A stretch of DNA of 64,000 bases. It comes from Gemmatimonadales bacterium. GTDB lineage: Bacteria > Gemmatimonadota > Gemmatimonadetes > Gemmatimonadales > GWC2-71-9. The notes beneath the pieces are model-generated. The model did no database searches and was not told the DNA's origin. It saw nothing but the letters and a program-made list of their open reading frames with translations. The translations under genes were made by a program, and so were the position numbers. The DNA is taken from NCBI GenBank assembly GCA_041602035.1, contig JBFIHA010000007.1:86720-150719 (forward strand). The letters run 5' to 3'. Each line of letters begins with the position of its first letter. The first letter of the stretch is position 1. Shown here in pieces: positions 18,708-36,825 of the stretch.

Positions 18708-18719
18708 CCGGGAGCACGC

Positions 18720-22285: not shown

Positions 22286-22717
22286 TCAGGCGCCGCCCCG
22301 GATGACCCCCTGGATCTCCCGCAGGATGGCTGTCTCGCGGGGCCTCTTGGTCACCATCTGCCGGAGCCGCTTCTCGGTGAAGTGGGCCCGAACCCGGGCG
22401 TCGGCTGAGTGCTCCCGGAGGGCGGCCAGGACGCCCTCGGGTAGCTCGAGGACCTGCAGCACTCTGGCAATCCGCGAGTGGTCCTCCCCGGTAGCCCTGG
22501 CGAGGGCTCGAATGCTGCGGTAGTCGTTGTCCGCCATCAACCGGCGGTAGCGCTCGGCGCGCTCCCAGGCTGGCTCTTCGGCCATCCGGTTCTGGTAGGC
22601 CCGCCACGCGCGGCCGTGCATGGGCCGATCGCCCTTGACCCCTTGAGGGGCCTCGCCGCTGATCAGGGCCCGGCGGCGGTTGCGGTAGACCGCGAAGTAG
22701 TTGTCGATTAGGATCAT
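22286..22717 (-). CDS. hypothetical protein with ParB-like HTH segment
   Basis: ORF 22286..22747. SIRALARATGEDHSRIARVLQVLELPEGVLAAL resembles the ParB/Spo0J HTH. No ParB N-terminal nuclease-like domain is visible. Confidence 0.5.
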   Translation of the reverse strand: MILIDNYFAVYRNRRRALISGEAPQGVKGDRPMHGRAWRAYQNRMAEEPAWERAERYRRLMADNDYRSIRALARATGEDHSRIARVLQVLELPEGVLAALREHSADARVRAHFTEKRLRQMVTKRPRETAILREIQGVIRGGA

Positions 22718-22808
22718 AGCCGGGGGACGGTCCGGGGCCTCCTCCATTTCGGGGTTCCACGCCAGGACGGTGTGGTGGTGGAGGTCGAGTCTGGCAAGGG
22801 ACCCTGAA

Positions 22809-22862
22809 GGCGGTAGGGCGGTAGGACGGTATGGGGGCAGGCTACCGCCCTACCGTCCGACC
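22809..22862. repeat. GACGGTAGG-type imperfect palindrome (member H0)
   Basis: GGCGGTAGGGCGGTAGGACGGTA (22809-22831) faces TACCGCCCTACCGTCCGACC (22843-22862), just upstream of tRNA-Trp. Confidence 0.6.
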
Positions 22863-22878
22863 GACGTCCCGCCATTAG

Positions 22879-22951
22879 AGGTCCGTAGCTCAATTGGCAG
22901 AGCACCGGTCTCCAAAACCGGGGGTTGCAGGTTCGAGTCCTGCCGGGCCTG
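22879..22951 (+). tRNA. tRNA-Trp: tRNA-Trp (anticodon CCA)
   Basis: AGGTCCGTAGCTCAATTGGCAGAGCACCGGTCTCCAAAACCGGGGGTTGCAGGTTCGAGTCCTGCCGGGCCTG. The acceptor AGGTCCG pairs with CGGGCCT. The anticodon loop is CTCCAAA. The T-arm is GCAGG-TTCGAGT-CCTGC. Confidence 0.92.
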
Positions 22952-22958
22952 TTGCGAC

Positions 22959-22987
22959 AAGGCCGCGCCATCGGCGCGGCCTTTGTC
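22959..22987 (+). terminator. stem-loop terminator after tRNA-Trp
   Basis: GGCCGCGCC (22961-22969) pairs with GGCGCGGCC (22973-22981) across a 3-nt loop, followed by TTTGT. Confidence 0.6.
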
Positions 22988-22997
22988 GTACAGACCC

Positions 22998-23078
22998 GCA
23001 GACTCGCTCTAACCGTCGGCGCGTCCGCTGCCGCGCACTCGCCGCCGCTTGACGAGTCGGGTCCTTGCCGCGGCCCTT
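22998..23078 (+). repeat. ~80-bp direct repeat R2, copy A
   Basis: GCAGACTCGCTCTAACCGTCGGCGCGTCCGCTGCCGCGCACTCGCCGCCGCTTGACGAGTCGGGTCCTTGCCGCGGCCCT. About 90% identical by eye to 33807-33886. It ends in a degenerate copy of the tRNA-Trp 3' 17-mer. Confidence 0.7.
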
Positions 23079-23454
23079 GTCGTTGCGGCCCGGCAGTCTC
23101 GTTGACCTCGTCGCTCGCTCGTGCTCGCGACGTCGGTTCGAGTCCTCGAAGGACTTCTTTCGCCCAGGCTATGTCCGCGGCTCGTCGCGTACAGGCACCG
23201 ACAGTCTCCGCTCTTACCGGGGCTCCGTCTGCTTTCGCGCACGGTGACACCGGTTCGCGACCTGCATTCGAACTCAATCGTCGGTACCCAACGTTTCGTT
23301 GCTTGTGCTGCGCCGCTGCGTAACGGCTACATGCAACAGCAGAAGCGCGGTCACGGATTGTCCAGCCACTCCCCGATGCACCCCACGGACTCATGTGCCG
23401 GGGTGAGGAAGTCGACTCGCAGAAAACGACCGGGCCGCGGCTGACCCCGGGTCC

Positions 23455-24015
23455 CTAACCGGAGGCGGCAGGGGAAATGATGATCCCACGCAACTCCACG
23501 GTAGGATTCGCTGGGTTGCAGACGCTTTGTCCAACTGGGGTCGCTCCGGCTGTGAACTTGATCGTCATCCCATGAAGCTCGCCTGTTCCATGTCCGACGC
23601 CCCGGCCGAGCCCAGGAACGCCACCGATGACTTCCACTGTTTGCCTGATTTCCCAGGTGCCGTCGACCGCGTCGGGCCTGACAGTGACCGCAAGGTGAGC
23701 GTGCCCGTTTCCAGTTCTGTTGATGTTGACATCCACGACATTTTCCTCGGAACCATCAACAAGCGGGTTGCCGGTGACCCATTCGTTGCGGTTTCTGGCG
23801 CCTTGGACATGCAGTGTACCGCCGGGGGTGATCTTGACGCCATCTGGCGCGAAGCTCTCGCAGAAGTTGATGAAACCCTCGAACTCCGTGCGCGTGGCGG
23901 CCGCGGCCGACAGCAGCGGCGAGACGTCCGTCACAGCCGTCGGGCTTGTTGCCTGGTCCGCGCACGCGCCGAAGGCAGCGAGGAACGTCACGGCCGCGAG
24001 AATCTGGTAACGCAT
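23455..24015 (-). CDS. hypothetical secreted lipoprotein, paralog A
   Basis: Internal ATG (24015) of ORF 23455..24177 gives MRYQILAAVTFLAAFGAC. It shares motifs such as KITPGGTLH, RPDAV.GTWEIR and GVGHGTGELHGMTIK with the neighbouring gene. Confidence 0.7.
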   Translation of the reverse strand: MRYQILAAVTFLAAFGACADQATSPTAVTDVSPLLSAAAATRTEFEGFINFCESFAPDGVKITPGGTLHVQGARNRNEWVTGNPLVDGSEENVVDVNINRTGNGHAHLAVTVRPDAVDGTWEIRQTVEVIGGVPGLGRGVGHGTGELHGMTIKFTAGATPVGQSVCNPANPTVELRGIIISPAASG

Positions 24016-24062
24016 CTTTACCTCCGTGTTAGGATGTTCAGGTTTGTCACTGCGTGGGGGAC

Positions 24063-24074
24063 CATTTCGAAATG
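24063..24074. promoter_or_regulatory. perfect 12-bp palindrome CATTTCGAAATG in the leader of paralog A
   Basis: Lies about 48 nt upstream of the ATG at 24015. A near-identical site sits at the equivalent position upstream of paralog B. Confidence 0.35.
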
Positions 24075-24154
24075 CGACGAGTGGGAGTGCATGCAGGCTC
24101 TGCTTCCCCGCAACGACGCGCTCGAAACCATCGGGCGGTGGCTGACGCTGAGCC

Positions 24155-24712
24155 CTAGCCGGAGGCGGCAGGAGCAATGATCGTCACATGCACTCTCGAA
24201 CTGGGATTGCTTGGGTTGCACACGTTTTGTCCCTGCGTGTGAAAACCTTCTCCCCTGACCTTGATGGTCATGCCGTGAAGCTCGCCTGTTCCATGTCCGA
24301 CGCCCCAACCACCCATACCGATTCGCACTTGGTTCCTGATTTCCCAAGTGCCTTCGACTGCGTCGGGCCTGAGGGTGCGTACACCATGAGCGCGGCCGTC
24401 TCCAGTGTTGAGGTTGATGTTGGCGTCCCCGACAATTTCCTCGAAACCGTCCAGCAGCGGGTGGCCGAAAACCCACTGGTTCCAGTTTCCGGCTCCTCTG
24501 ATGTGTAGCGTTCCACCGGGGGTGATTTTGATGCCGTCTGGCGGCGTGCTCCCGCAAGCGTGCACTAAACCATCGACCTCCGTGCGTTGGGCGGCCTCTA
24601 CCGATAACAGCGGCATTATCTCCGTCACAGCTGTCGGGCTTGTCGACTGGTCCGTGCACGCCCCGACGGCACCCAGGAACGCCACGGCCGGGATGAGAAT
24701 CTGGTAACGCAT
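24155..24712 (-). CDS. hypothetical secreted lipoprotein, paralog B
   Basis: Internal ATG (24712) of ORF 24155..24787 gives MRYQILIPAVAFLGAVGAC. Roughly 55-60% identical to paralog A by eye, with the same C-terminus (PAASG). Confidence 0.7.
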   Translation of the reverse strand: MRYQILIPAVAFLGAVGACTDQSTSPTAVTEIMPLLSVEAAQRTEVDGLVHACGSTPPDGIKITPGGTLHIRGAGNWNQWVFGHPLLDGFEEIVGDANINLNTGDGRAHGVRTLRPDAVEGTWEIRNQVRIGMGGWGVGHGTGELHGMTIKVRGEGFHTQGQNVCNPSNPSSRVHVTIIAPAASG

Positions 24713-24758
24713 TTTGACCTCCGTGTCAGGGATGTTCAGGTTGGTCGCTGGTAGGGAC

Positions 24759-24770
24759 CATTCCGAAATG
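24759..24770. promoter_or_regulatory. near-palindrome CATTCCGAAATG in the leader of paralog B
   Basis: Lies about 47 nt upstream of the ATG at 24712. It sits inside a ~65-nt leader conserved with paralog A (GGACCATT.CGAAATGCGACG, GATGTTCAGGTT). Confidence 0.35.
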
Positions 24771-24954
24771 CGACGCGCGCGGGTCACCGGCTAACCACTC
24801 CGACATCGGAAGTAGCACACGATCCTCCGAATGGCTGCGCTACAACTAGCCGGCCGGCTGCGGTGGTTCATTGACGCGGAGTGGTGCCGGGATATTCTTG
24901 CGTGGGGCGATCAATTCGTCGTTCTGCGCAGTCAGCCGAGAGTCAACTCCGCCG

Positions 24955-27816
24955 ATGTACCATCTCCGCACGTTGGGAACCGCGCGCTTGGAAGGGCCTA
25001 GTGGCCCGTTGGGAGGCAGGGTCGCGCGGCGCCACCAGCTCGCGCTGCTCGCCCAGCTCGCCGTGGCCCGGGGCCACACCCTCACCCGCGACAAACTCCT
25101 CGCCTACCTCTGGCCGGAAGCGAACAACAACCGGGCGCGCCATCGGCTGAACGTGGCGGTGCATGAGGTTCGCCGGGCGTTGGGCGCGGACGCGATCGTT
25201 TCCCTGGTCGACGATCTACGTTTGAACACGGATGTCGTAACGAGCGATGTTGCCGAGTTCGAGGCCGCGGTGAGGACCGGCGAGTTGGAGCGCGCGGTGG
25301 GACTGTATGGCGGGCCGTTCTTGGATGGGTTTCATCTCAGGGGGGCGCGGGAGTTCGACGCCTGGGCGAGCGAGGTGCGGGAGCGGCTGTCGGGTCGCTA
25401 CGCCAATGCACTGGGGCAGCTGGCTAGCGAAGCGCGGGAGCTGGGCAACGGAGGGAGCGCGGTCCGTTGGTGGCAGGCGCTGGTGGCCCACGAGCCGTAT
25501 CAGGCCGACGCCGTGAATGGGTTGATAGAGGCGCTGGTGGCTGTGGGTGATCGGGCGGGGGCGCTGGAGGCGGGTAGCGCCTACGCCCGACGAGTGACGC
25601 GCGATCTAGCGATGGAGCCAGACGTCAAGGTGGTGGCTCTGTTAGAACGGGTGCGCTCAGAGAATCCGGAACCGGTTGCAGGCGGCACCGCCGTCGTGAG
25701 CGGGCCGACGGGGTCGGCGATATCACCCGAGCTCACCGCTTCACGCGTGCAGGGGCGCGACCAGGCCACGGCTCCGCGGCCCGTTACGCGTGGCCGGCAG
25801 CTCTGGTCGACGGCTCTGCACAGCCGGTGGATCCGTACGGCGGGTGTGGCGGGAGCGATCGCCATGGTTGCTGTTGGCGCTCGCATGTGGGTACACCAGT
25901 CGCAAGTCCGCTGGGCGCGAGACGTGGCGCTCCCCGCCGCGGCCCGACTCGTGGACGAGGGGCGGACGTATGCGGCGTACCGGTTGTTGCGGGAAGCTGA
26001 GGCGTACGTGCCGGATGATCCGATCCTCGAGGAGCTGCTGCTCGAATCCGCCACGCGCGTTAGCATTCGCTCCACGCCACCGGGCGCCCAGGTGTATGCC
26101 CGCGATTTCCTCGATGAACCGCACGCCTGGGAGCTCCTGGGCTCCACACCCCTGGACGCGGTACGCCTCCCGTGGGGCCACCTGGTGTACAGGATCTCGC
26201 TTGAAGGCTTTCAGCCCAGGGAGGGGCTGGTGTTCACGCAGGCTCGGGCGCTGGACTTCTCCCTGCAGCCGGCCAACGAGGCTCCTGCGAACATGGTGCA
26301 TGTGCCCGGCGGGAACTACGAGTTCTTCAAGCAGCAAGCCGACCTCGACGACTTCTGGATCGACCAGTACGAGGTGACCAACCGGCAGTTCAAGGTGTTC
26401 GTCGATCAAGGCGGATACGACAGACGTGAGTTCTGGCCTGAGCCAGTCGTCAACGACGGCACCGACTTTGGTTGGGACGAAACGCGGGCGTTGTTCCTTG
26501 ACCGGACGGGCCGGCCAGGGCCCGCCACGTGGGAGGTGGGTGCCTACCCTGACGGGCGGGACGAGTATCCGGTCAGCGGAGTGAGCTGGTACGAAGCGGC
26601 GGCCTATTGCGCTTCGGTCGGCAAGCAGCTTCCGACCGCCTTCCACTGGTACCACGCAGCCGCTCTGGGTGGGGTAACGGAGTTCGTGCAGTTCAGCAAT
26701 TTCGATGCGACCGGCCCCACGACGGTGGGCCATCCCCTTCGGCTCGGATTCCATGGCACGTACGACATGGCCGGCAACGTCAAGGAATGGGTCTGGAACG
26801 AAGCGGACGACGCCAGGCGGTACGTCCTGGGTGGTGGCTGGCATGAACCCAGCTACCAGTTCAACACTCCCGATGCGCAGCCCCCCACGCGCCGGGAGCC
26901 CAGCTACGGCATTCGCTGCGCCAAGTATCGAGCGCCCCTGACTGTGGCACAGACTGCCCCCATCGCGACGCCGTTCCGCGACTACCGACACGAGACCCCT
27001 GTGAGTGACGAGGTGTTCGCAGTGTACAAGAGGTTGTACGAGTACGACCGGACACCTCTAGACCCCCAGGTAGACCCTGTGCGCGAGGAGTTCGAGCACT
27101 GGTCAGTGGAGCACGTGAGCTTCGCAGCAGCGTACAGCAACGAGCGGGTGCCGGCGCAGCTCTTTCTTCCGAAGAACGCGCGTCCGCCGTTTCAGGCGGT
27201 TGTGTGGTTCCCAGGTGGCGCGCCATTTGTCCAGCGGTCTTCGCCTGAGGGATCCTTCGGCGATGCATCCAGGTTCCTGTTCCTGGTCCGGAGCGGCCGG
27301 GCAGTGGTGCTCCCGGTTTACAGGGGCATGTACGAACGCCACATCGGGCCCATCTTCTTGCCGAACATTTGGCGCGATCTGATGATTCATGCGGCAAAAG
27401 ATCTCCGCCGCACCGTTGACTACCTCGAGACGCGGCAGGATATCGACGCACAGAAGCTTGCGTACTCCGGGATCAGCATGGGCGCGGCGGTCGGTCCGAT
27501 CATGACCGCCGTCGAGCAGCGCTTCCGAGCGAGCATCCTGTTCGGTGGTGGGTTGTACTCCCTTCAGCAACCGCCGGAGGCAGAGGCATTCCATTTCGTT
27601 CCCCGGGTCAAAGTGCCGACCCTCATGATCAACGGCCGGCACGACTTCTTCTTTCAGTATGAGACATCCCAGGTCCCGATGCTTGAGTGGTTGGGCACGC
27701 CCGACAAGCACCATGCGGTTTTCGAGTCAGGGCACGTGCCGACAGAGCGGCAAGAGGTCATGAAGGAAGCACTGGACTGGCTCGACCGGTTTCTCGGGCC
27801 GGTGGCCAGACGCTGA
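24955..27816 (+). CDS. multidomain protein: SARP/BTAD transcriptional regulator + TM helix + FGE-sulfatase (SUMF1-like) domain + alpha/beta-hydrolase (S9/DLH-like)
   Basis: ORF 24871..27816, with ATG at 24955 (MYHLRTLG). The N-terminus is an OmpR-like winged helix plus BTAD (LLAYLWPE...AVHEVRRAL...DVAEFEAAV). A TM helix follows (IRTAGVAGAIAMVAVGARMWV). The FGE motifs are FWIDQYEVTN, YPVSGVSWYEAAAYC, GNVKEWV and GIRCAK. The C-terminal hydrolase carries the nucleophile elbow GISMG. Confidence 0.8.
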   Translation: MYHLRTLGTARLEGPSGPLGGRVARRHQLALLAQLAVARGHTLTRDKLLAYLWPEANNNRARHRLNVAVHEVRRALGADAIVSLVDDLRLNTDVVTSDVAEFEAAVRTGELERAVGLYGGPFLDGFHLRGAREFDAWASEVRERLSGRYANALGQLASEARELGNGGSAVRWWQALVAHEPYQADAVNGLIEALVAVGDRAGALEAGSAYARRVTRDLAMEPDVKVVALLERVRSENPEPVAGGTAVVSGPTGSAISPELTASRVQGRDQATAPRPVTRGRQLWSTALHSRWIRTAGVAGAIAMVAVGARMWVHQSQVRWARDVALPAAARLVDEGRTYAAYRLLREAEAYVPDDPILEELLLESATRVSIRSTPPGAQVYARDFLDEPHAWELLGSTPLDAVRLPWGHLVYRISLEGFQPREGLVFTQARALDFSLQPANEAPANMVHVPGGNYEFFKQQADLDDFWIDQYEVTNRQFKVFVDQGGYDRREFWPEPVVNDGTDFGWDETRALFLDRTGRPGPATWEVGAYPDGRDEYPVSGVSWYEAAAYCASVGKQLPTAFHWYHAAALGGVTEFVQFSNFDATGPTTVGHPLRLGFHGTYDMAGNVKEWVWNEADDARRYVLGGGWHEPSYQFNTPDAQPPTRREPSYGIRCAKYRAPLTVAQTAPIATPFRDYRHETPVSDEVFAVYKRLYEYDRTPLDPQVDPVREEFEHWSVEHVSFAAAYSNERVPAQLFLPKNARPPFQAVVWFPGGAPFVQRSSPEGSFGDASRFLFLVRSGRAVVLPVYRGMYERHIGPIFLPNIWRDLMIHAAKDLRRTVDYLETRQDIDAQKLAYSGISMGAAVGPIMTAVEQRFRASILFGGGLYSLQQPPEAEAFHFVPRVKVPTLMINGRHDFFFQYETSQVPMLEWLGTPDKHHAVFESGHVPTERQEVMKEALDWLDRFLGPVARR

Positions 27817-28230
27817 ACCATTCTCTGAACAATGGGGAGCATCCGGCCCTTCCACGAGCAAACGCGCATCGCGCCGGAGCGAGGACCTGTGCATGCCAGT
27901 TAACAGGCGCAATGCTTCGCGTGGCTTGTGACCGTTCGCTAGAGGATCTTCGTTCGCTGCGTATGGCCTCAGTAGGGACCACTCTTTGCCCGTCCCCCCG
28001 GCAGGGCCAGTGCATCGGGCTGCCGGGATCGAGCGTGGATCACTTTCTAAGTTGGGCACATCCTGGGCACATCCACCCGCAGACAGACGCAACCAGACGC
28101 CAGTCAGGCGCAAAAGGCGCCCTCATCGCCTCGGCCATGCGCCCTCCCGTCCGCGGGTAGGGTCGAGGTCGCCTACTCGGCGGCGTCGATCCGGTGAACC
28201 ACCGTACCGGTCAGATCCGCAAACCATTTG

Positions 28231-28355
28231 CAAACCAACAGGAAGGGACAGGACAGTACGAGAGGGGACAGAACGGGACGAAAGGACCTGCCAAGTCAGT
28301 ACAGGGAGGGACTAAACGGGACCAGAAGGGACCAGACGGGATGAAGACCACCGAA
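28231..28355 (+). repeat. T-depleted purine-rich tract with phased GGGAC motifs
   Basis: Only 6 T in 125 nt by hand count. GGGAC starts at 28245, 28265, 28275, 28308, 28318 and 28328, which are multiples of about 10 nt apart. Includes the tandem GGGACCAGA(A/C). It abuts tRNA-Trp partial copy 1. Confidence 0.6.
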
Positions 28356-28397
28356 CTCCAAAACCGGGGGTTGCAGGTTCGAGTCCTGCCGGGCCTG
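28356..28397 (+). repeat. 42-nt duplicate of the tRNA-Trp 3' portion (copy 1, 42/42 identical)
   Basis: CTCCAAAACCGGGGGTTGCAGGTTCGAGTCCTGCCGGGCCTG is identical to 22910-22951. It lacks the 5' acceptor strand and D-arm, so it is not a tRNA gene. Confidence 0.9.
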
Positions 28398-28400
28398 TGA

Positions 28401-28523
28401 AGACAGACGGTAAGACGGTAGGTTGGTAGGACGGTAGGTGCGTCCGGGCTTCCTACTGTCTTTGTCGTTTACCGTCCTACCGTCGTACCGTCCTACCGTC
28501 CGTTGCGAGTCCTGCCGGGCCTG
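28401..28523. repeat. GACGGTAGG-type ~100-nt imperfect palindrome H1 plus flanking 17-nt tRNA-Trp 3'-end repeat
   Basis: The left arm GACGGTAAGACGGTAGGTTGGTAGGACGGTAGG faces the right arm TACCGTCCTACCGTCGTACCGTCCTACCGTC. The 17-mer GAGTCCTGCCGGGCCTG follows at 28507-28523. Confidence 0.8.
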
Positions 28524-28525
28524 TG

Positions 28526-28560
28526 AGCGCAAGTGCTCATGGTGCTTGCGCTTCTGTTAT
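28526..28560 (+). terminator. stem-loop followed by T-rich run
   Basis: AGCGCAAG (28526-28533) pairs with CTTGCGCT (28545-28552), followed by TCTGTTAT. This mirrors the hairpin that follows the genuine tRNA-Trp gene. Confidence 0.4.
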
Positions 28561-28943
28561 GGCCCTTTGTTACCCTGGGTGGGCGTCACAGTGGCCTGTG
28601 ACCGATTGCGTGACGCTCCCAGCATAGAATCCGGCCGAGCCACGCAACTCTCTCTCAGCAGTCCCACTCAGTGCTTGCGCCTCAATCGGTTACTGAATCG
28701 GCGTCGATGTGCTCGACACCCCGAACCGGGCACCCGGTTCCGCTGTCGTACGGCTCGCCTCGAATGGAAGGCGTGTTTTGACCTTGCAGCGTGCCCGACG
28801 TTGCCGTCGGCTGCAGAGCAGAAGAGCGTAGGGCGCTGCGCCTCCATCTGGGAGAGGCGACCGTCTACGCATTTGAGTTCCGTCCGGTGGCGCAGAGCGG
28901 CCCGGCCTAATTCGTCACTTCGGTCCGGCGCTTCGACTACCGG

Positions 28944-30260
28944 CTATCGCATGGGCGACGCCGTCGGTAGCGGATTCACCACGTCGAGGTGACTCAGAAG
29001 CACGAGCTCCCCAGTCGTCGCGACGTTGGTGTAGTCGTACTGGTCGAGGCCGTCGGGACCGACCACGATCGCCAACGGCGGAATGAGGATGACATCGTAC
29101 GTCTCGTGGGCCGTTTCGAATGCGAGCAGGTCGATGTTCATGGGGTCGGTCACGTCGTAGACCTTGAGCCCGGCCCGGCCGTCGCACACGAACAGCGTGG
29201 CGCCGTCAATCCCCAGACCGAAGGGTCCCTGCATCCCGTAGCTTTTGACCAGCAGCGGATTCGCGAGGTCGGTGATGTCCAGGATGTCGAGCTGATTCGC
29301 GCCTCCCCCGCACAAGCTTCCCGCCCGCAGTGTCACGTAGGCATAGTCGCCGTGGGCCACCACGGGATCGCAGGCGGTGACGTGTGCAAACGCGGAGAGC
29401 TTCGTCGGGTTCTCCGGGTTGGTGTTGTCGTATATGAACATCCCCGTGGTGGATCCAATGAACAGGTAATCCCCGTACGGAAAGATCGTTTCGATACCCC
29501 AGCCGACGTCGACCGTGCTCCAGAGACTGGGATTGCTGGGATCGTCAATCCGCACGAGCTGGATGTACGAATCGTGAAGGGCGTACAAGAAGGGTTCGAC
29601 AATGGTGAACCGGGCCATCGATCCGCCTGTGCCGGTCGCGCCTGAGCGGTTCCCGCCTGTGGGGGCCGCGATATCCCCCCCGCTCTCGAGCCCTACACCA
29701 AAGAAGTGGTCCGCGCGCACGCGCTCGATTCCCGTCTGCTCCCATCCCACGACGACGCCGATGCGCTCATCGGGAGTCTCGACTCGGCTGTTGGCGACGA
29801 AATTGTCCGCCATCCAGGGTGATGGGGTCTGATACGGAAAAGCGTCTTCTATCCGTGCGACCTCGACGGCATTCAGCGGGTCGGCGATGTCGACCGCGAC
29901 GAGGTCCACATAGCTGTCGGCGTACAGGGTGGTGCCCTGTATTGCCATGTCGACGTTCCCGGGGATCGGGATGAAGGCAATCTTCTGCGGCGAGGATGGG
30001 TTGGTGTTGTCGATGACGTGGATGCCCTTGTAGAGCTCGTTGATGTAGATGTAGCTGTCTTTGACGTAGATCTTGCCGGTGGTGTCGATAGCGACGGGGT
30101 CCACCGCCACGACCGGCGTTCGGAGCTCCGCATAACTGAGGTAGACCGGCGAGAACACCGGTACCTCCTGGTACTCTGTGCAACCGGTAACAACGAATCC
30201 TGTTGCCGCAACGCAACCAACCGCGGCGAAGACGGCCGACGCCATAAGGGATTTTCGCAT
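28944..30260 (-). CDS. LVIVD-repeat (beta-propeller) lipoprotein
   Basis: ORF 28944..30281. MRKSLMASAVFAAVGCVAATGFVVTGC is signal/lipobox-like. Repeated motifs of the GIHVIDNTNPSSPQKIAFI and LKVYDVTDPMNIDLLAFE type are present. Confidence 0.75.
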   Translation of the reverse strand: MRKSLMASAVFAAVGCVAATGFVVTGCTEYQEVPVFSPVYLSYAELRTPVVAVDPVAIDTTGKIYVKDSYIYINELYKGIHVIDNTNPSSPQKIAFIPIPGNVDMAIQGTTLYADSYVDLVAVDIADPLNAVEVARIEDAFPYQTPSPWMADNFVANSRVETPDERIGVVVGWEQTGIERVRADHFFGVGLESGGDIAAPTGGNRSGATGTGGSMARFTIVEPFLYALHDSYIQLVRIDDPSNPSLWSTVDVGWGIETIFPYGDYLFIGSTTGMFIYDNTNPENPTKLSAFAHVTACDPVVAHGDYAYVTLRAGSLCGGGANQLDILDITDLANPLLVKSYGMQGPFGLGIDGATLFVCDGRAGLKVYDVTDPMNIDLLAFETAHETYDVILIPPLAIVVGPDGLDQYDYTNVATTGELVLLSHLDVVNPLPTASPMR

Positions 30261-30780
30261 TTTCGCATGCTCCATGGTCACGCCTCCTGGCTTTCCGGAG
30301 TGACCTGAAGCCTGCTAGTCGGCTCCCGGAGGAGCCTCTCGCAGCCCGTATCACGCCTCATGCAGCAAGCTAGCAAGCTTCGGGTCACTATGGTTCGATT
30401 TGAGATTCGCGGTGAGGATTCCGCCAAAGCGCCACCCCTGTTCTCCCAAGGGTCGCTGGTAGCCTGCGTGAAGTCCCCACGTCCGGGTACGAGAGCAAAC
30501 GGAAGAGAGCGCATGGCGCCTCCCTGCCCGGTGGGCAGCTCCGGCCCCCAACACGCACTCCCCGGGGACACGTGGCCCGCCGCATCACCTTGTATGACCC
30601 GCCGCGGCCCCGAAGGGTCACATCACGGCGGGTGATTCATGGGATTCCCCGGGGCTGACCGCCCCGGGTTCAGGTGTGCTTCCCTTGAGCAGCCGGACGC
30701 GGGCATTGCTCGGACGCGTACCATAGCCAAGCTCGGTGACCGGTGTCGCAGACTGATCAAGCCCTATGTTGAATGGAGAC

Positions 30781-30888
30781 CGTCACAACTGACGTTTCCT
30801 CTGACGTTAGCCCATGCCGTACCCTTCGTTCTGGTGGGTATTGCGTCAGTGAATGACGCCTCTTGACGCCGTTTTGACGTAAGGGTAC
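30781..30888 (+). repeat. cluster of TGACG/CGTCA motifs bracketed by an 8-bp inverted repeat
   Basis: Motifs: CGTCA-N4-TGACG (30781-30794), CTGACGTT twice (30789, 30801), GCGTCA-N5-TGACGC (30843-30859), TTGACGCC and TTGACGTA. GTACCCTT (30829) faces AAGGGTAC (30881). The cluster abuts tRNA-Trp partial copy 2. Confidence 0.6.
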
Positions 30889-30890
30889 AT

Positions 30891-30932
30891 CTCCAAAACC
30901 GGGGGTCGCAGGTTCGAGTCCTGCCGGGTCTG
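30891..30932 (+). repeat. 42-nt duplicate of the tRNA-Trp 3' portion (copy 2, 40/42 identical)
   Basis: CTCCAAAACCGGGGGTCGCAGGTTCGAGTCCTGCCGGGTCTG has two substitutions relative to 22910-22951. Confidence 0.9.
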
Positions 30933-30934
30933 TG

Positions 30935-31057
30935 AAGAAAGACGGTAAGACGGTAGGTGGGTAGGACGGTAGGTGCGTCCGGGCTTCCTACTGTCTTTGT
31001 CGTTTACCGTCCTACCGTCGTACCGTCCTACCGTCCGTTGCGAGTCCTGCCGGGCCT
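30935..31057. repeat. GACGGTAGG-type palindrome H2 plus flanking 16-nt tRNA-Trp 3'-end repeat
   Basis: Nearly identical to H1 (GACGGTAAGACGGTAGGTGGGTAGGACGGTAGGTGCGTCCGGGCTTCCTACTGTCTTTGTCGTTTACCGTCCTACCGTCGTACCGTCCTACCGTCCG). GAGTCCTGCCGGGCCT lies at 31042-31057. Confidence 0.8.
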
Positions 31058-31091
31058 TTCAGAGCCGGGGACCCATCTCGATCATGGGCAC

Positions 31092-33689
31092 TTAACCGCC
31101 CACCTTGCGGCCTGTGGCATCACGGCCATTCTGATGCATTACGACGCCGGTCACCTCCCCCGACTGGTTCTTGGTAAATGTGAACTCCACCGGAGCTGTT
31201 CTTGAGTAGAACCTGGTCTCCGACTCGGCGTAGATCCGAGACTTCTCCTGCCCAGCCGGCTGAACCCATAACGTGCCATCCTCGAACGTCACGACGACCG
31301 AGAACCGCGACGAAAACTGGTACTCGCCGGTGTACGACACGAGAACGGTCGCGTCGACCTCGGCTTCAGCGCGCTCCGACACGGGACCCTTGCATTCCCG
31401 TCCCGACTCGATTTCGCTTTCGATCCGATTGAACTCCATCGCGTAGTTCGACACGTTGTCGTACTTCATCTCTCGCGCCATGTCGTACGCTTTGCTGTAG
31501 TTCGCTCTCGACTCCTCTGACCGACACAACACGCGATACGCGTCCCCGAGGTGGTTGAACACCCGCGCCGATCCGGGATGGAGCACCGCGTTGCGCTCCA
31601 ATTCCCGTACGGCGTCGTCCCAGCGACCTTCCCGCGCGTGCGTGCGCGCGGCGATGTCGGCCACGTCTTCATGCGGTACCACTCGATATCCAAACCGCTC
31701 GCTCAGCTCGGCGTAGTGGGCGTCAATCGTCGCCCAGCCTTCTCCGCCGGCTTGCGCCGCCAAGGTCGCGATGTCGGTAAGCTCCCAGCCAGCGAACAGC
31801 CAGGTCAGGCCGTCGCGAAGCGCGACATGTGCATCGGCCGAGCCACTGGAGAAGGTTCTGTCTCCACCGTACGACGCGTTCATCGATCCATCTCTACCCA
31901 CTGCGATCGTGCCGACCGATTCGTGAGGGCCCGCCGTCTGCGCATCTCCCACGAGTATCGTCAACGCGGCCGTGCGGTACTCGGCCGCGACCCATGGCCG
32001 CAGCTCGTCAGTGATGAACGCAGAAAAGACAGACCGTTGCGCGGCCGTGGGTGCCGGAGTATGCACGACGATGAGCCCAGGGGCGCGGCCGCGATCGGCC
32101 AGAGAACGCGCGACGCCGGAGGCCTGATGCAGCGCAGGCTCACCGTCGAGCACGACCATCACGGGGTACTGACTGGACATCGACAACTCGTATCCCTCGG
32201 GCGTCAGCGTCCGGAGCGAGCGCTCCTCGCCGAGAATCGCGGAAGTAATGCTGGCCTTCCGTCCGGGAAGCGACGCCCTCGCGCCCTCGGCTGCGGCTAG
32301 CGGGACACCGGCTGCGATGCGACGAGGTGCGCTGGTGCTCCGTCCGCCCTGGTGCAGGACCATGCCATTGACCGCGCCGGCGTCGTCTTTGGCAAACGAG
32401 ATCTGCGCATTCACGACGCGGGCAAAGAACCTCGTATCGGTCTCGGGGAAGATCGGGAACTTGTTCTGCCCGGTTGCCTGCGCGAAGAGGCCATCGTTCT
32501 CGAGCGTGATGGCAATGACGAAAGTCGGTCGCAGCTCGTACTCGCCGACGTAGGTCTCAAGAATGTCTTGGGGGACGAAGACTTCGATCCGATCGGCTAC
32601 CGGCGTGTCACTCACCGGGATGTCCGGGTTGATCAGATGTAACGCAATGTCCCGTGACGAGATCGGGTAGTTCGCGAGCATGACCGCGCCGACGCCGGCG
32701 TCCGGATCGAATCCAACGAACGCGCGGAAGCCCCGCGTGGCGCCCCCGTGGGTGATGATGCGTTTCTCACCAAACCTCATCACGTGCCAGTTGAGGCCGA
32801 TATCGGTGTTCTCGTCGACGGTACTCCGCACTTGGTACGCATCCCGCATCGACCGTTCGATCTGCGACGTCGGTGGACCGGTGTTGGCGGCCACGAAACG
32901 CAACATGTCTTCTGCATTGGACCGTAGAGCGCCCATCGCCGGGAGGTTGGGCCAGTTGCGGTAGGGAGCAGCGAGCCCCATCTCGTCGTGTCCGACCGTC
33001 ATCCACTCGCGCACCTCACCTTCGACCTTCGTGCTCGTTGTGTGCATCCCGAGGGGATCGAGGATCCTTTCCCTGAGCAGCTGTTCGTACGTTTGCCCGG
33101 TGGCGCGCTCGAGCACGTGGCCGAGTAACGCGACCGCGATGTTCGAGTACTCGTACTCGGCGCCGACATCGCGGCGCAGCTCGTGGCCCGAGAGAAACTC
33201 GTACAGCATGTCGATCGTGTACGTGGGGTACGCGCCGTCGCCGGTGGGAACCATGTTGGTCGGCATGCGCGTCAATGACGACCGGTGCGTGGCAATATCG
33301 AGCAACGTGATCTCGCGTCCGGGTCGGCTCGGGACAGTCACACTGTCAGGCAGGTACTTGGCGATCGGGTCCTCTAGAGCGACCTCACCGCGCGCGACCG
33401 CGTCCGCCAGCAGGATCCCCGTAAAGGCCTTGGTGATCGATCCGAGTTCGAAAACCGATTTAGGGCCGAGCGGCCGTGCACCTTCGCCGGCATCACCGTA
33501 GTAGACGATTTTCGTCGATCCATCGGCTTCCATGACGCCGAGCACTATCGCCATGCCGCTGTCGGCCTCGACGCGCTTTTCGATGAGTGCGGTCAGGTCC
33601 TCAGTCGACGGGAAATGTTGTGCGCTCGCGGCGGCGGGAAGCAGTATCGCGAGCAAGAAAAGGATGGTCAGTCGCGTTCGCTGCATCAT
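31092..33689 (-). CDS. serine hydrolase (class C beta-lactamase/PBP family) with esterase-like, TPR and two DUF3471-like regions
   Basis: ORF 31092..33935. The ATG at 33689 gives MMQRTRLTILFLLAILLPAAASAQ. The SxxK motif is GSITKAF. The upstream ORF extension is translated hairpin repeat and is spurious. Confidence 0.8.
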   Translation of the reverse strand: MMQRTRLTILFLLAILLPAAASAQHFPSTEDLTALIEKRVEADSGMAIVLGVMEADGSTKIVYYGDAGEGARPLGPKSVFELGSITKAFTGILLADAVARGEVALEDPIAKYLPDSVTVPSRPGREITLLDIATHRSSLTRMPTNMVPTGDGAYPTYTIDMLYEFLSGHELRRDVGAEYEYSNIAVALLGHVLERATGQTYEQLLRERILDPLGMHTTSTKVEGEVREWMTVGHDEMGLAAPYRNWPNLPAMGALRSNAEDMLRFVAANTGPPTSQIERSMRDAYQVRSTVDENTDIGLNWHVMRFGEKRIITHGGATRGFRAFVGFDPDAGVGAVMLANYPISSRDIALHLINPDIPVSDTPVADRIEVFVPQDILETYVGEYELRPTFVIAITLENDGLFAQATGQNKFPIFPETDTRFFARVVNAQISFAKDDAGAVNGMVLHQGGRSTSAPRRIAAGVPLAAAEGARASLPGRKASITSAILGEERSLRTLTPEGYELSMSSQYPVMVVLDGEPALHQASGVARSLADRGRAPGLIVVHTPAPTAAQRSVFSAFITDELRPWVAAEYRTAALTILVGDAQTAGPHESVGTIAVGRDGSMNASYGGDRTFSSGSADAHVALRDGLTWLFAGWELTDIATLAAQAGGEGWATIDAHYAELSERFGYRVVPHEDVADIAARTHAREGRWDDAVRELERNAVLHPGSARVFNHLGDAYRVLCRSEESRANYSKAYDMAREMKYDNVSNYAMEFNRIESEIESGRECKGPVSERAEAEVDATVLVSYTGEYQFSSRFSVVVTFEDGTLWVQPAGQEKSRIYAESETRFYSRTAPVEFTFTKNQSGEVTGVVMHQNGRDATGRKVGG

Positions 33690-33806
33690 TTGGGCGTGTC
33701 CGCGTGAGGGGTGTCTGCACTTGAATGTGCGTAGCACCCTTACGCGGTCAAGGCGTTGCGGTTTCGAGGAATTCGACCGAGGGACGGGGCGGGATGAAGG
33801 TGAGGC

Positions 33807-33886
33807 GCAGACTCGCTCTACCCGTCGGCTCGTCCGCTGTCGCGCACTCGCCGCCGGCTGACGAGTCGAGTCCTGCCGGGCCTGTG
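33807..33886 (+). repeat. ~80-bp direct repeat R2, copy B
   Basis: GCAGACTCGCTCTACCCGTCGGCTCGTCCGCTGTCGCGCACTCGCCGCCGGCTGACGAGTCGAGTCCTGCCGGGCCTGTG. It ends with a perfect copy of the 17-nt tRNA-Trp 3' end (33868-33884). Confidence 0.7.
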
Positions 33887-34006
33887 GAAATAGACGGTAC
33901 GACGGTAGGTCGGTAAGACGGTAGGTGCCCGCCATGCCCGCCGTCTTTGCTGTTTACCGTCCTACCGCCTTACCCTCCTACCGTCCGTTGGGAGTCCTGC
34001 CGGGCC
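33887..34006. repeat. GACGGTAGG-type palindrome H3 plus 15-nt tRNA-Trp 3'-end repeat
   Basis: GACGGTACGACGGTAGGTCGGTAAGACGGTAGG faces TACCGTCCTACCGCCTTACCCTCCTACCGTC. GAGTCCTGCCGGGCC lies at 33992-34006. Confidence 0.75.
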
Positions 34007-34009
34007 GGT

Positions 34010-34132
34010 GAGGACAGACGGTAAGACGGTAGGTGGGTAGGACGGTAGGTGCGTCCGGCTTCCTACCCTCTTTGTCGTTTACCGTCCTACCGTCGTACCG
34101 TCCTACCGTCCGTTGCGAGTCCTCCCCGGCGC
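34010..34132. repeat. GACGGTAGG-type palindrome H4 plus degenerate tRNA-Trp 3'-end repeat
   Basis: Close copy of H1/H2. The degenerate repeat GAGTCCTCCCCGGCGC lies at 34117-34132. Confidence 0.75.
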
Positions 34133-34200
34133 TTGACCGGGTCCGTTCCCGGGCACCACTATCTGACCAACACGCTCATCCCAAGGTGAAGGAGGGAGTC

Positions 34201-34686
34201 ATGCGATGCACGGCCGCTCTACCGGTGCTCTCAATTGTGATGGTCGCAGGCTGCACTCCGCAGCCGGCGATCGATCTCGAGGCAGAGCGCAACGCCCTGA
34301 TGACTGCAGACCGCGCCTGGTTCGAGGCGTATGCCGCCAGTGAGAACCCGGCGGACGCGTTCGTCGCTCAGCTCGTCGATAACGCTACCTTGCTCCCGCC
34401 CAACGCGCCGTTGGCGCAGGGCAGGGAGGCCATTCACGCCGTGATCAGCGACCTCGAAGCCATGCCAGGGTTCTCGGTCACGTGGGAGCCGAACGCGGCC
34501 GAAGTGGGAAGCGGTGGCGATCTGGGCTACACGATCGGCAGCTACCAGATGAAGATGGAAGGCCCCGACGGCCCGATGACGATCGACGGCAAGTACCTGA
34601 CCGTTTGGCAGAAGCAGGCTGACGGGACCTGGAGGGTCATCGCCGACATGTTCAACGCGAACGGTCCCCCGGCGCCGCAGATGTGA
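34201..34686 (+). CDS. DUF4440/SnoaL-like (NTF2 fold) lipoprotein
   Basis: Internal ATG of ORF 34033..34686 gives MRCTAALPVLSIVMVAGC. The C-terminal KYLTVWQKQADGTWRVIADMFN is typical of DUF4440. Confidence 0.7.
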   Translation: MRCTAALPVLSIVMVAGCTPQPAIDLEAERNALMTADRAWFEAYAASENPADAFVAQLVDNATLLPPNAPLAQGREAIHAVISDLEAMPGFSVTWEPNAAEVGSGGDLGYTIGSYQMKMEGPDGPMTIDGKYLTVWQKQADGTWRVIADMFNANGPPAPQM

Positions 34687-34834
34687 CCCCAGATCGGCGG
34701 GCGCTGGACGCCCGCCAAGCTCTTCGACGTCGTCGCTCGCCCCTGCTCGCGACATCGGTTAATGCTGGGCTTGGGTCGGGTGCTCCTCAGCGGCTGATGG
34801 GGCAGGCGCTGAGCCCTCGCCCCCTCATAGCTGC

Positions 34835-34868
34835 CGCCCTACCGTCCTACCGTTCTACCGCCTTTCGG
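34835..34868. repeat. half-copy (right arm only) of the GACGGTAGG-type element
   Basis: CCGCCCTACCGTCCTACCGTTCTACCGCC, with no matching left arm nearby. Confidence 0.5.
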
Positions 34869-34974
34869 GCCCGATATTTGCGCCTTTTTGGCAGGCAGGG
34901 CGGCGCGGAGCCGCGGCGTGGGGGAACGACTCGGCTCGCCCGATGGTACGATGGCAATCTGCCATACTGGTTGC

Positions 34975-36069
34975 ATGACTCGGGGAGAGGGAGACGTGAA
35001 AGGACGCCGGTTTACGCTGGTTCTCGGTGGGGGCGGCATGAAGGGCATCGCCCACGTGGGGGTGCTGCTCGCGCTCGAAAAGCACGCCGCCTTCCCCGTC
35101 GAGGTCGTGGGCTCCAGCGTGGGATCGCTGGTGGCGGGCGCCTGGTGTGCGGGCATGCCGGCCGTGGAGCTCCGGAAGCTCGCGCTCGCCCTGCGCCGCC
35201 GAGACCTGTTCCGCATCGCGCACCGCGACATGGCGGTCAAGCGCATGCGGTCTCGCGCCATCTACCAGAGTGAGCCCCTCAGGCAATACGTGACGCGCCT
35301 GTTCGGAGACATCACGTTCGACGAGTTGAAGCGTCCCCTCCTGATCAACTCGGTCAGCCTCACCACGGGGCGCCAAGTGTTTTGGGGTTCGCCCGGACTC
35401 TCCGACATCCGCGTGGCGGACGCCGTGCTCGCGTCATGCGCGCTGCCGGGATACCTGCCGCCCCATGAGATCCGCGGCGAGTACTTCATCGACGGGGCCG
35501 CCGTGGCGAATCTCCCCGTGGCGGCGACCACCGCACTCGATCGCGACCTGATCCTGGCGGTCGACGTGGGTTCGACCGCGGCCATTCGTCCGGATGCGGA
35601 AACGATGGGCTTCGCTGCGGTGTACGCGCGCGCCATCGAGTTCGGCATCCAGACGATGCGGACTGCCGCCCTGCTGCATTGGAGTCGACCGCCTCTGCTC
35701 CTGATCCAGCCGGATATCCGCTACAGCAGCCTGCTCTCGTTCCACTACAACCGCGAGCTCGTGGCCGAGGGCTACCGAGCGACCACCGAGATGCTCGCGG
35801 ATCCCGCCGTAATTCCGCCACGCGGGGCCTCGGGCGTCTACCCTCGGCAACGGTACGGCGTGCGCGTGATCCGGGAGCGGTGTATCGGCTGTGGGGCGTG
35901 CCGCATTCATGGACCGCCCGGGTTGTTCGTCCCTGGCGGCGACGGGAAGGCGGTCGTGACCGAGCCGGTGCAGGTCTGGAACGCCGTGCAGGCGGAGTTC
36001 GTCCGACAGTGCCCGACCAAGGCCATCGTGCTGGAGGCCGCCGAGCAGGAACGCGAGTCCGCGGCGTGA
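34975..36069 (+). CDS. patatin-like phospholipase fused to a C-terminal single-cluster ferredoxin domain
   Basis: ORF 34888..36069, with ATG at 34975. Oxyanion motif GGGGMKG, nucleophile GSSVG and catalytic DGA (FIDGAAVANLP). The C-terminus has CIGCGAC...(about 35 aa)...CP. Confidence 0.8.
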   Translation: MTRGEGDVKGRRFTLVLGGGGMKGIAHVGVLLALEKHAAFPVEVVGSSVGSLVAGAWCAGMPAVELRKLALALRRRDLFRIAHRDMAVKRMRSRAIYQSEPLRQYVTRLFGDITFDELKRPLLINSVSLTTGRQVFWGSPGLSDIRVADAVLASCALPGYLPPHEIRGEYFIDGAAVANLPVAATTALDRDLILAVDVGSTAAIRPDAETMGFAAVYARAIEFGIQTMRTAALLHWSRPPLLLIQPDIRYSSLLSFHYNRELVAEGYRATTEMLADPAVIPPRGASGVYPRQRYGVRVIRERCIGCGACRIHGPPGLFVPGGDGKAVVTEPVQVWNAVQAEFVRQCPTKAIVLEAAEQERESAA

Positions 36070-36221
36070 CGAGTGCACTCCGGTCGTAACCGGGAACTCA
36101 GTACCCCTTCCTTCCAGCCAACCGTCCCAGCGCACCACTGCTGACCGCCTCGTGCGGTAGCGGCCTCCCGTCCCAGGCGTACATTTCCCCGCAGCAATCC
36201 CAGACTCGCCAAGGAGATCCC

Positions 36222-36695
36222 ATGGGCTCCCGACGCCTCATCCCCACGTTCGCCGTGACGCTCGCCCTCGCCGCCTGCTACCCTGCGGCCGAAGCCCCCG
36301 CGCTGTCGGACGAGGACACGGCCGCGATCCAGAGCTTGCTCGACAACTACGTGGCCAACGTGCAGGCGCAGGACTGGACGACGCTCCTCTCGTACTACGT
36401 CGACGGCGCCGTTCGGATGCCACCTGACGCACCGATGCAAGCAAACGACGCCGAGATGATGGCGTGGCTCGAGGCGCTCCCACCGGTCACGAGCTTCAGC
36501 CTCACGCCGCAGGTCATCGATGGCCGAGGCGACCTCGCCTATGCGCGCGGCGCGTACACACTCGACCTTGCACCGCCCGATGCGCCACCGGTGCAGACGG
36601 TCGGGAAGTGGCACGCGATCTATGAGCGCCAAGCCGATGGATCCTGGCTCTGTGTGAGCGACATCTGGAACAGCGACGTGCCGCCGGCCATGTAA
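36222..36695 (+). CDS. DUF4440/SnoaL-like (NTF2 fold) lipoprotein
   Basis: MGSRRLIPTFAVTLALAAC is a lipobox signal. KWHAIYERQADGSWLCVSDIWN is a DUF4440-like C-terminus. Confidence 0.7.
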   Translation: MGSRRLIPTFAVTLALAACYPAAEAPALSDEDTAAIQSLLDNYVANVQAQDWTTLLSYYVDGAVRMPPDAPMQANDAEMMAWLEALPPVTSFSLTPQVIDGRGDLAYARGAYTLDLAPPDAPPVQTVGKWHAIYERQADGSWLCVSDIWNSDVPPAM

Positions 36696-36713
36696 CGAAC
36701 GGCGCGAGGGCAG

Positions 36714-36825
36714 CAAGACGGTAAGGCGGTGGGTGCGGAAATCGCACCTGCCGCCGTGCTATATGCCGTCCTGCCCAGCGACCGTCCTCTCGTCCTGTCG
36801 CCCTACCGCCCGCCGACGCCGTGCC
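36714..36825. repeat. degenerate member of the GACGGTAGG-type palindrome family
   Basis: AGACGGTAAGGCGGTGGGTGCGG ... CCGTCCTGCCCAGCGACCGTCCTCTCGTCCTGTCGCCCTACCGCCC. Confidence 0.4.

Follow-up and report, generated by a model that had tools for sequence, protein, structure and literature searches.

A 64,000-nt stretch of the genome of Gemmatimonadales bacterium GCA_041602035.1 (contig JBFIHA010000007.1, positions 86,720-150,719, forward strand; hereafter the window) carries, downstream of an intact tRNA-Trp gene, four imperfect palindromes of 103-104 nt, H1 to H4, bracketed by copies of the last bases of that tRNA. We propose that two independent things probably overlap at this place: a family of hairpins whose arms are built of tandem octamers and which is spread throughout the lineage, and a tRNA-Trp integration hotspot occupied by integrase-less island remnants, within whose attachment (att) block a hairpin of that family was copied. 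The original prediction had joined the short internal periodicity of the palindromes and their bracketing by tRNA ends into the description of a single family. Besides the window, the analysis relies on relatives. Synteny was established through the patatin gene of the right flank, used as anchor. The relatives are referred to as L247 (about 83-88% nucleotide identity to the window), L246 (a close relative whose patatin gene is 94% identical to that of the window) and L139 (a metagenome contig).

The four palindromes lie at the predicted positions and share the architecture (GNCGGTAR)x4, centre, (YTACCGNC)x4. The start-to-start spacing of the units is 8 nt, and the 9-nt period reported at first was a misreading, because neighbouring 9-mers overlap by one G. 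The octamer features of the window, to which no strand is assigned, are the following.

22809..22862: short octamer hairpin with 3 units per arm, between a ParB-HTH-like gene and tRNA-Trp (-42.5 kcal/mol, z -3.2)
28401..28503: H1 hairpin, 4 x GNCGGTAR, 33-nt centre, 4 x YTACCGNC
30935..31037: H2 hairpin, part of a 175-nt direct repeat with 28356-28530 (96%)
33887..33989: H3 hairpin, divergent and with poorer pairing than the other copies
34010..34113: H4 hairpin, octamer arms
34835..34868: solo array of C-rich octamers, situated upstream of patatin
36714..36825: decayed octamer hairpin, flanked by the second DUF4440 gene and the permease gene

H1, H2 and H4 are almost identical, as had been noticed (H1/H2 96%, H1/H4 94%), and H3 shares 79-81% with the others; the supposedly conserved centre is the same in H1 and H2 but different in H3. 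The copies are mosaic, H2 having the left-arm variant of H4 and the centre of H1. Folded as single-stranded RNA, H1, H2, H3 and H4 are very stable (-58.7, -55.4, -43.9 and -53.6 kcal/mol; z-scores of -7.2, -5.7, -3.3 and -5.0), with stems of at least 30 bp and a stability that none of 200 shuffles matched. Searches of the window with a three-unit pattern and with a four-unit pattern allowing up to two mismatches gave 11 and 10 matches, respectively, against 0.00 expected in both cases, all of them within 22.8-34.9 kb. The claim that all copies are intergenic agrees with the annotation of open reading frames (ORFs) and Pfam domains. As for the minor copies, the first is a three-unit hairpin and the second a solo C-rich array, the one at 36714-36825 being only weakly recognisable.

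Octamer arms are found far beyond this locus. A scan with the four-unit arm pattern, using one genome per species, returned at least 118 loci; the organism was named for 80 of them, and 72 of these 80 belong to metagenome-assembled genomes (MAGs) of Gemmatimonadota or Gemmatimonadales, from about 55 assemblies. Often several contigs of one MAG were hit, and arrays often lie at contig ends. A separate scan of viral contigs with the arm pattern gave 8 loci. The arms are 24-130 nt long and consist of tandem 8-nt units (3 to more than 16), the centres measuring 5-300 nt. Every unit contains GTAG or GTAA, without a single head tetranucleotide, both arms of a pair share the same unit variant (GAC/GAC, GGC/GGC or GTC/GTC), and the G-rich arm comes first in 28 pairs, the C-rich arm in 1. 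The centres of octamer hairpins contain or adjoin a further palindromic repeat, CATCCCGAGCGNAGCGAGGGATC and its complement, at seven loci or more, from different MAGs (L019 at 6054-6130, L025, L030, L036, L079, L081 and L101).

The tRNA-Trp 15-mer that brackets the window copies adjoins an array at none of the loci listed by the scan; its sole match with at most one mismatch among the loci listed is on a Cupriavidus contig, about 5 kb from the array, and a tRNA gene of any kind adjoins an array at only 2 of the loci listed. At locus L011 (361-1247), from a Gemmatimonadaceae MAG, the array sits within a tRNA cluster, after His, Trp, Glu and Glu and before Asp, Leu and Thr, which places it in a transcribed spacer. 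Some 30 palindromes of other genomes lack any real direct repeat above 9 nt at their flanks, the long value obtained at L018 being an indexing artefact at a contig end. The arms thus occur across Gemmatimonadota with neither a tRNA link nor flanking duplications, and the tRNA bracketing is local, being confined to the window strain and two close relatives, L139 and L246. On this ground the single family of the original prediction has to be split, and the novelty claimed for it is lost to a widespread REP-like element (REP, repetitive extragenic palindrome) that is unrelated to tRNA-Trp ends; the resemblance to REP sequences pointed out there fits this wider family. In Rfam, only two tRNA genes passed the thresholds, and the hairpins gave chance-level matches to microRNA precursors (26-29 bits, with cut-offs of 69-97). 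A search of the accessible literature for the octamer strings and for repeats of Gemmatimonas found no match. What is left of the novelty is thus the wider hairpin family, apparently not a known annotated repeat.

Elsewhere the arrays lie in intergenic or 3' untranslated DNA, most often beginning a few bases after a stop codon. At GC-rich loci we counted 116 elements, 16 of which overlap a called ORF; the 63 intergenic elements that could be classified divide into 28 in convergent, 28 in co-directional and 7 in divergent gene contexts, with a median distance of 14.5 nt to the closest gene 3' end. For arrays within 60 nt of a stop codon, the sense strand is G-rich in 52 cases and C-rich in 11. 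From the position after stop codons, the bias towards convergent pairs, the sense polarity, the covariation of the arms and the high stability, we infer a role at RNA 3' ends, where the hairpins may act in termination, in protection against 3'-exonucleases or as RNase III sites; they could also have roles at the DNA level. The lack of a T-run in H1-H4, none of which a consensus terminator scan flags, speaks against a simple version of this role: the hairpins are not canonical intrinsic terminators. Fold stability on the transcribed strand versus the opposite one gave no signal, in a comparison (n=10) that is uninformative.

Some octamer arms enclose a gene. At loci L076 and L083, the arms are 470-540 nt apart and the DNA separating them codes for a member of PF05635, the family of 23S rRNA intervening-sequence proteins (E = 8.5e-30 and 7.7e-32), and tblastn detected the succession of G-rich arm, PF05635 gene (in either orientation) and C-rich arm in 7 of the 118 loci listed, all of which had been chosen for carrying arrays (L003, L046, L053, L056, L073, L076 at 495-1002, and L083). 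This is the only gene found within arms elsewhere, and it is not a known transposase; tblastn found no PF05635 gene in the window. Intervening sequences (IVSs) of 23S rRNA have a similar composition, with a stem of terminal inverted repeats, an S23p ORF in the loop and cutting by RNase III (PMC4990558). The octamer-arm hairpins, occasionally with PF05635 cargo, appear to be an undescribed family of REP/IVS kind.

The second component is the tRNA-Trp gene. Its last 15 nt, GAGTCCTGCCGGGCC, recur downstream of it in seven copies with at most one mismatch, all on the + strand, where 0.04 are expected; an eighth, degenerate copy is at 34117. These core copies bracket every full palindrome, in agreement with the original prediction. 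The tRNA-derived features are listed below.

15630-15704: tRNA-His
22879..22951, + strand: intact tRNA-Trp(CCA), whose last 15 nt, GAGTCCTGCCGGGCC at 22935-22949, are the repeated core
22952..22990, + strand: trailer/terminator hairpin of tRNA-Trp, directly after the tRNA (-31.5 kcal/mol), conserved in L247
28345..28398, + strand: displaced tRNA-Trp 3' fragment 1, 94% over 54 nt, its identity unbroken between the anticodon loop and the 3' end
28506..28526, + strand: core copy of the T-loop class, CGAGTCCTGCCGGGCCTGTGA, a 21-nt direct repeat with 28380-28400
28525..28553, + strand: hairpin with T-rich tail, directly after the core copy, resembling an older tRNA-Trp trailer/terminator
30890..30933, + strand: displaced tRNA-Trp 3' fragment 2, 95% over 44 nt, from the anticodon loop
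31042..31056, + strand: core copy
33992..34006, + strand: core copy between H3 and H4
34117..34131, + strand: degenerate core GAGTCCTCCCCGGCG, with the L246 orthologue GAATCCTGCCGGGCG preceded by a decayed C-rich arm

The repeats fall into two classes, namely fragments of 54 and 44 nt that begin in the anticodon loop (CTCCAAA) and copies of 15-21 nt whose first bases are (C)GAGTCC of the T-loop. By an established rule, elements that target tRNA genes have tyrosine integrases that cross over at the anticodon loop or the T-loop (Williams 2002, cited in PMC4383910). Displaced tRNA fragments also serve as markers of island ends (PMC4383910). The reading of the flanks as a target-site duplication of the transposase type is not tenable, since they vary from 14 to 21 nt, start at the positions of integrase crossover and flank cargo segments of 2.4-5.4 kb as well as hairpins. 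The companion idea of a reduced integrative element that lost its cargo fares better: the tRNA repeats are best read as att footprints, and the arrangement fits a remnant of the cis-mobilizable element (CIME) type.

A 175-nt block made of tRNA fragment, hairpin and core is present twice, at 96% identity, around the gene for an LVIVD-repeat lipoprotein, which accounts for the near-identity of H1 and H2 if they are read as the two ends of one small island. A hairpin follows nearly every core: the tRNA itself has the one at 22952-22990, the core at 28507 has the one at 28525-28553, and the others have H1-H4, the exception being the core at 31042, with at most a weak hairpin after it. Linkers and orientation relative to the core are the same in every full copy. 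If the 126 nt that separate the 21-nt repeats on either side of H1 are taken out, a tRNA 3' end is regained, with a terminator-like hairpin and its T-rich tail behind it. Finally, the junctions that link hairpin to core, TACCGTCCGTTGCGAGTCC and CCGGGCCTGTGAAGACAGACGGTA, were found in the window, L139 and L246 only, in 1.8 Mb searched.

Between and around these repeats lie the following blocks and cargo.

22997..23075, + strand: block D10 copy 1, ending in the degenerate core GGGTCCTTGCCGCGGCCC; 90% identity with 33806-33882, and found after the tRNA-Trp of L247 too
23088..23138, + strand: block D8 copy 1, 82% identical to 34710-34760
23139..28221, no strand assigned: island A cargo, two paralogous genes for 186-aa secreted proteins and a 981-aa BTAD/FGE-sulfatase/hydrolase gene, with no integrase; absent from L247
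28222..28344, + strand: GCAAACC x2 and six GGGAC repeats, abutting tRNA fragment 1 and resembling integrase arm-type sites
28554..30779, no strand assigned: island B cargo, one LVIVD-repeat lipoprotein gene (28944-30275, minus strand)
30780..30889, + strand: TGACG/CGTCA repeats, abutting tRNA fragment 2; a second, different arm-site-like block
31058..33805, no strand assigned: island C cargo, a beta-lactamase/DUF3471/esterase/TPR gene on the minus strand
33806..33882, + strand: block D10 copy 2, ending in the exact core 33868-33882
34201..34686, + strand: DUF4440 gene, following the H3/H4 stack, with D8 copy 2 (34710-34760) after it

The short repeats before the long tRNA fragments are dense, with six copies of GGGAC within 127 nt and seven of TGACG/CGTCA within 113 nt, about 0.2 being expected per strand. 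Blocks D10 and D8 are separated by 12 nt in copy 1, and H3, H4 and the DUF4440 gene intervene between them in copy 2. GC content at 23-34 kb is below that of the flanks, and third-position GC is reduced in the island genes. BLAST of 28222-28560 against plasmids and phages gave matches through the tRNA part only, and a scan of viral contigs with the tRNA-Trp 3' end returned only tRNA-Met/Trp genes and the ends of prophages from other taxa, without octamers in any of them. The two 186-aa paralogues of island A stand in tandem on the minus strand (23455-24015 and 24155-24715); the proteins have signal-peptide-like N-termini and belong to no Pfam family, and the genes share about 76% identity across 281 nt and have upstream regions that are conserved as well.

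The arrangement is not an assembly artefact, because window positions 25554-34703 are colinear, at 99.8%, with L251, a contig of an independent NCBI MAG, and the H3-H4 stretch is spanned by the Logan contig L120. Other short-read contigs of the same strain stop inside the hairpin/core repeats.

Comparison with the relatives shows where DNA was gained. L247 reads tRNA-His, a short palindrome, tRNA-Trp, the terminator hairpin, D10, a degenerate core, tgtggaaa, a plain GC hairpin and gttgcga, and continues with a single gene, a C-rich solo array, patatin, a further array and a permease gene. The patatin flank is reached about 1.4 kb after tRNA-Trp, and because the site is nearly empty in L247, the roughly 11 kb that lie between D10 copy 1 and the patatin flank of the window are inserted. 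Relative to L247, the window has gained about 10.8 kb behind D10; it has H3, H4 and the DUF4440 gene in place of the plain hairpin; and it has a further 7.1-kb insertion between the two tRNAs (15706-22800). Since the linkers on either side of H3 (tgtggaaa ... gttgcga) enclose the plain GC hairpin in L247, it is a hairpin and not the octamers that this position conserves. Cargo varies among the close relatives L246, L247 and L139. L139 keeps the GGGAC block, tRNA fragment, hairpin and core at about 93%, with different genes on both sides and a hairpin that has the same arms and linkers and a 6-nt centre. L246 has a decayed arm and core before the DUF4440 gene and a second arm-linker-GAGTCC junction, its cargo being otherwise different. 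At about 1000-1050 of L139, a 48-nt insertion with a small hairpin interrupts the tRNA-Trp fragment exactly between GGTTC and AGTCC of the T-loop, which is also the point where the short core repeats start.

The remaining arrays of the window, at 22809, 34835 and about 36800, are ancestral: a degenerate orthologue of the 22809-22862 palindrome sits between tRNA-His and tRNA-Trp in L247, and the spot orthologous to 36714-36825 holds a 4-unit array in relatives. The solo array before patatin is orthologous in four genomes (window 34835-34868, L247 2371-2410, L248 97-140 and L246 7292-7320), with 3 to 6 units, which are of the CCTACCGT type in the window and of the CACTACCG type in L247. Because the unit sequence differs at orthologous sites, this divergence suggests concerted evolution by slippage or conversion. 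We rejected the idea that 12 kb had been inserted into one palindrome, based on a 42-nt complementarity between 22799-22840 and 34831-34872, as L247 has both arrays at orthologous positions without that relationship. At 34762-34800 the window retains the last 40-60 nt or so of a gene for an 89-aa protein, intact in L246 (6985-7254) and recognisable in L247, which marks the right-hand boundary of the variable region.

The 7.1-kb insertion begins right after tRNA-His, which in L247 is separated from tRNA-Trp by 73 nt. It carries an operon for the osmoprotectant N-acetylglutaminylglutamine amide (NAGGN; asparagine synthase, ATP-grasp/acetyltransferase and M42 peptidase), two 92-aa ORFs and the ParB-HTH-like gene; a tRNA-His fragment was sought at its far end and none was found. 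The ParB-HTH-like protein (153 aa, 22286-22747, minus strand) has homologues of 60-84% identity in MAGs labelled Acidobacteriota, Omnitrophota, Planctomycetota and Gemmatimonadota, and in L227 its gene lies directly after tRNA-His and adjoins a DUF5131 gene. This has the look of an island gene that has been widely transferred. Synteny searches on this left flank, with the ParB-HTH-like gene and the NAGGN M42 peptidase, led to relatives without tRNA-Trp downstream.

We suggest the following course of events. The tRNA-Trp gene would have been a hotspot for two classes of elements, those recombining at the anticodon loop, which left the 42-54-nt fragments, and those recombining at the T-loop, which left the 15-21-nt copies. 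Successive islands may have accreted beside the tRNA and lost their integrases, leaving CIME-like remnants that an integrase acting in trans could still have moved; CIMEs are defined as integrase-less, att-flanked segments that accumulate in tandem by accretion (PMC5704250). An octamer hairpin probably sat directly after the tRNA-Trp 3' end as its trailer hairpin, became part of the 175-nt block of tRNA fragment, hairpin and core that islands and target shared, and would from then on have been copied with this block. Each core with its hairpin would then be a former tRNA-Trp 3' end with its trailer, or a 3' end brought in by an incoming element.

Several points weigh against this scheme. The window ORFs scanned (0.4-57 kb of the 64 kb) include neither an integrase nor any other recombinase or transposase, the gene lists of L246 and L247 have no integrase either, and no integrase-bearing relative of the islands was found. 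The unit of 125-126 bp is too small for a plausible free circle, so that the hairpin-only units call either for one old deletion whose product was then copied or for some different mechanism. Moreover, the junction TACCGTCCGTTGCGAGTCC is almost invariant in six copies from three genomes and, instead of being a passive scar, could have a function as a site. Because the four hairpin-only units and the conserved junction of arm, linker and core are left unexplained, a rival in which hairpin and core act together keeps appreciable weight, even though we hold it to be unlikely. It takes the hairpin plus one core as a mini-integrative element of about 126 bp, similar to miniature inverted-repeat transposable elements (MITEs), that targets the segment of tRNA-Trp from the T-loop to the 3' end, the octamers binding a recombinase supplied in trans and the bracketing being intrinsic to the subfamily. 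The uniform linkers and core orientation of every full copy, the tandem of H3 and H4, the nearly invariant junction of right arm, linker and core in the window, L139 and L246, the clean tRNA end and terminator regained when the unit around H1 is removed, and the 48-nt insertion of L139 exactly at the T-loop break point can all be read in this sense. The octamer arrays, however, occur throughout Gemmatimonadota without att-like repeats and are therefore unlikely to be arm sites of a recombinase specific for tRNA-Trp, a plain GC hairpin occupies the same linkers in L247, the repeat length varies from 14 to 21 nt, and no recombinase was found among the ORFs scanned; in addition, H1 and H2 lie within a 175-nt repeat that includes a fragment of the anticodon-loop class, so that their duplication is explained without independent insertion.

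A more far-reaching reading, which we regard as quite improbable, makes the octamer-arm hairpins an IVS-like selfish family of Gemmatimonadota that had not been recognised before, with full-length members bearing a PF05635 (Avd/S23p-like) gene in the loop and many gene-less miniatures such as H1-H4, one subfamily of this lineage having fused to the tRNA-Trp T-loop core and shuffling single secreted-enzyme genes between strains as a cassette-like module. Dispensing with a site-specific recombinase altogether is, in our judgement, very improbable. The palindromes would then have promoted unequal crossing-over, slippage or template switching, followed by gene conversion, and the islands would have arrived by homologous recombination at the repeats; this would account for the mosaic hairpin copies, for the concerted evolution of arrays at orthologous sites in the window and L247 (CCTACCGT-type versus CACTACCG-type) and for the microhomology between TTCGA of the T-loop and TTGCGA of the trailer/linker. 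Breakpoints at the anticodon loop and the T-loop, and the distinct arm-like repeat blocks next to the long fragments, are not what it leads one to expect. Simple tandem duplication by the TTCGA/TTGCGA microhomology as sole mechanism was rejected, for it predicts identical sequence after each core and the post-core sequences differ. We give still less credence to an integron-like cassette array, in which cargo of one to three genes is exchanged at composite sites of tRNA core and hairpin, analogous to attC. Cargo does alternate with core-hairpin-core modules (A, H1, B, H2, C, H3, H4, DUF4440), close relatives have the junction modules in common and different cargo, and the modules of H1, H2 and H4 are near-identical, like chromosomal attC sites. 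The cores, on the other hand, are direct and not inverted repeats, neither an IntI-like gene nor an attI/Pc arrangement was found in the ORFs scanned, the large cargo genes lie in both orientations and have upstream regions of their own, and two classes of tRNA repeats with their own arm-like blocks fit ordinary tRNA-targeting integrases better. The overlap of a hairpin family with a tRNA-Trp hotspot is thus the reading that we retain.

Gemmatimonadota are abundant in soil and little studied genetically. A phylum-wide, orientation-locked hairpin repeat starting a few bases after stop codons would affect assembly and annotation, and would offer an entry to transcript 3'-end formation in a high-GC lineage in which classical U-tract terminators are not evident at the hairpins. 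The nesting of PF05635 genes links intergenic hairpins to the intervening sequences of 23S rRNA and provides a system for asking what the protein does and whether the element is mobile. The tRNA-Trp part is known, ordinary biology, and the locus illustrates cleanly how very small islands without integrases can stack up at a tRNA gene.

Among known systems, integron attC sites resemble the window in that imperfect palindromes of about 100 nt, near-identical within one array, separate short cargo. They differ in that the cores flanking the hairpins are direct and tRNA-derived instead of inverse R''/R' boxes, there is no IntI among the window ORFs scanned, and the cargo is neither promoterless nor uniformly oriented. 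Unlike MITEs, the octamer hairpins have no target-site duplication of fixed length, the flanks in the window being tRNA-derived and 14-21 nt long; the window ORFs scanned contain no transposase, and PF05635, whose gene some arms enclose elsewhere, is not a known transposase. With the IVSs of 23S rRNA, the octamer family shares a long inverted-repeat stem (about 28 bp or more) and a loop that may hold a PF05635 gene of about 120 aa (PMC4990558), but its hairpins are, in all copies examined, intergenic or at gene 3' ends and not within 23S rRNA helices, their stems are built of octamers, and the window copies H1-H4 contain no ORF. There is also a likeness to REP sequences and bacterial interspersed mosaic elements (BIMEs): many extragenic copies, several per MAG (at least 118 loci), lie mainly after gene 3' ends or between convergent genes, without target-site duplications, and in 28 of 29 pairs the G-rich, GTAG/GTAA-containing side forms the 5' foot, with no single head tetranucleotide. 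In contrast to REP/BIME sequences, the arms are tandem 8-nt arrays and not a single palindrome of 20-40 nt, the centres vary and may contain a gene or other repeats, and the lineage is Gemmatimonadota; a tblastn search for RAYT over about 0.9 Mb of loci, with an approximate E. coli RayT query, gave no match (best E=0.64), which is a weak test. For the tRNA-Trp locus, the systems to compare are tRNA hotspots and CIMEs. The window islands are unusually small for a tRNA hotspot (0.13-5.4 kb), four 'islands' consist of a hairpin only, and the block of identity between island and target runs 130 nt past the tRNA fragment. The locus nevertheless fits the definition of CIMEs in that att copies are kept and the ORFs scanned contain no integrase (PMC5704250), and it resembles tRNA hotspots in its intact tRNA at one end and displaced 3' fragments as direct repeats (PMC5704250, PMC4383910), in boundaries at the anticodon loop and T-loop, in att-flanked segments that lack an integrase and in the almost empty site of a relative.

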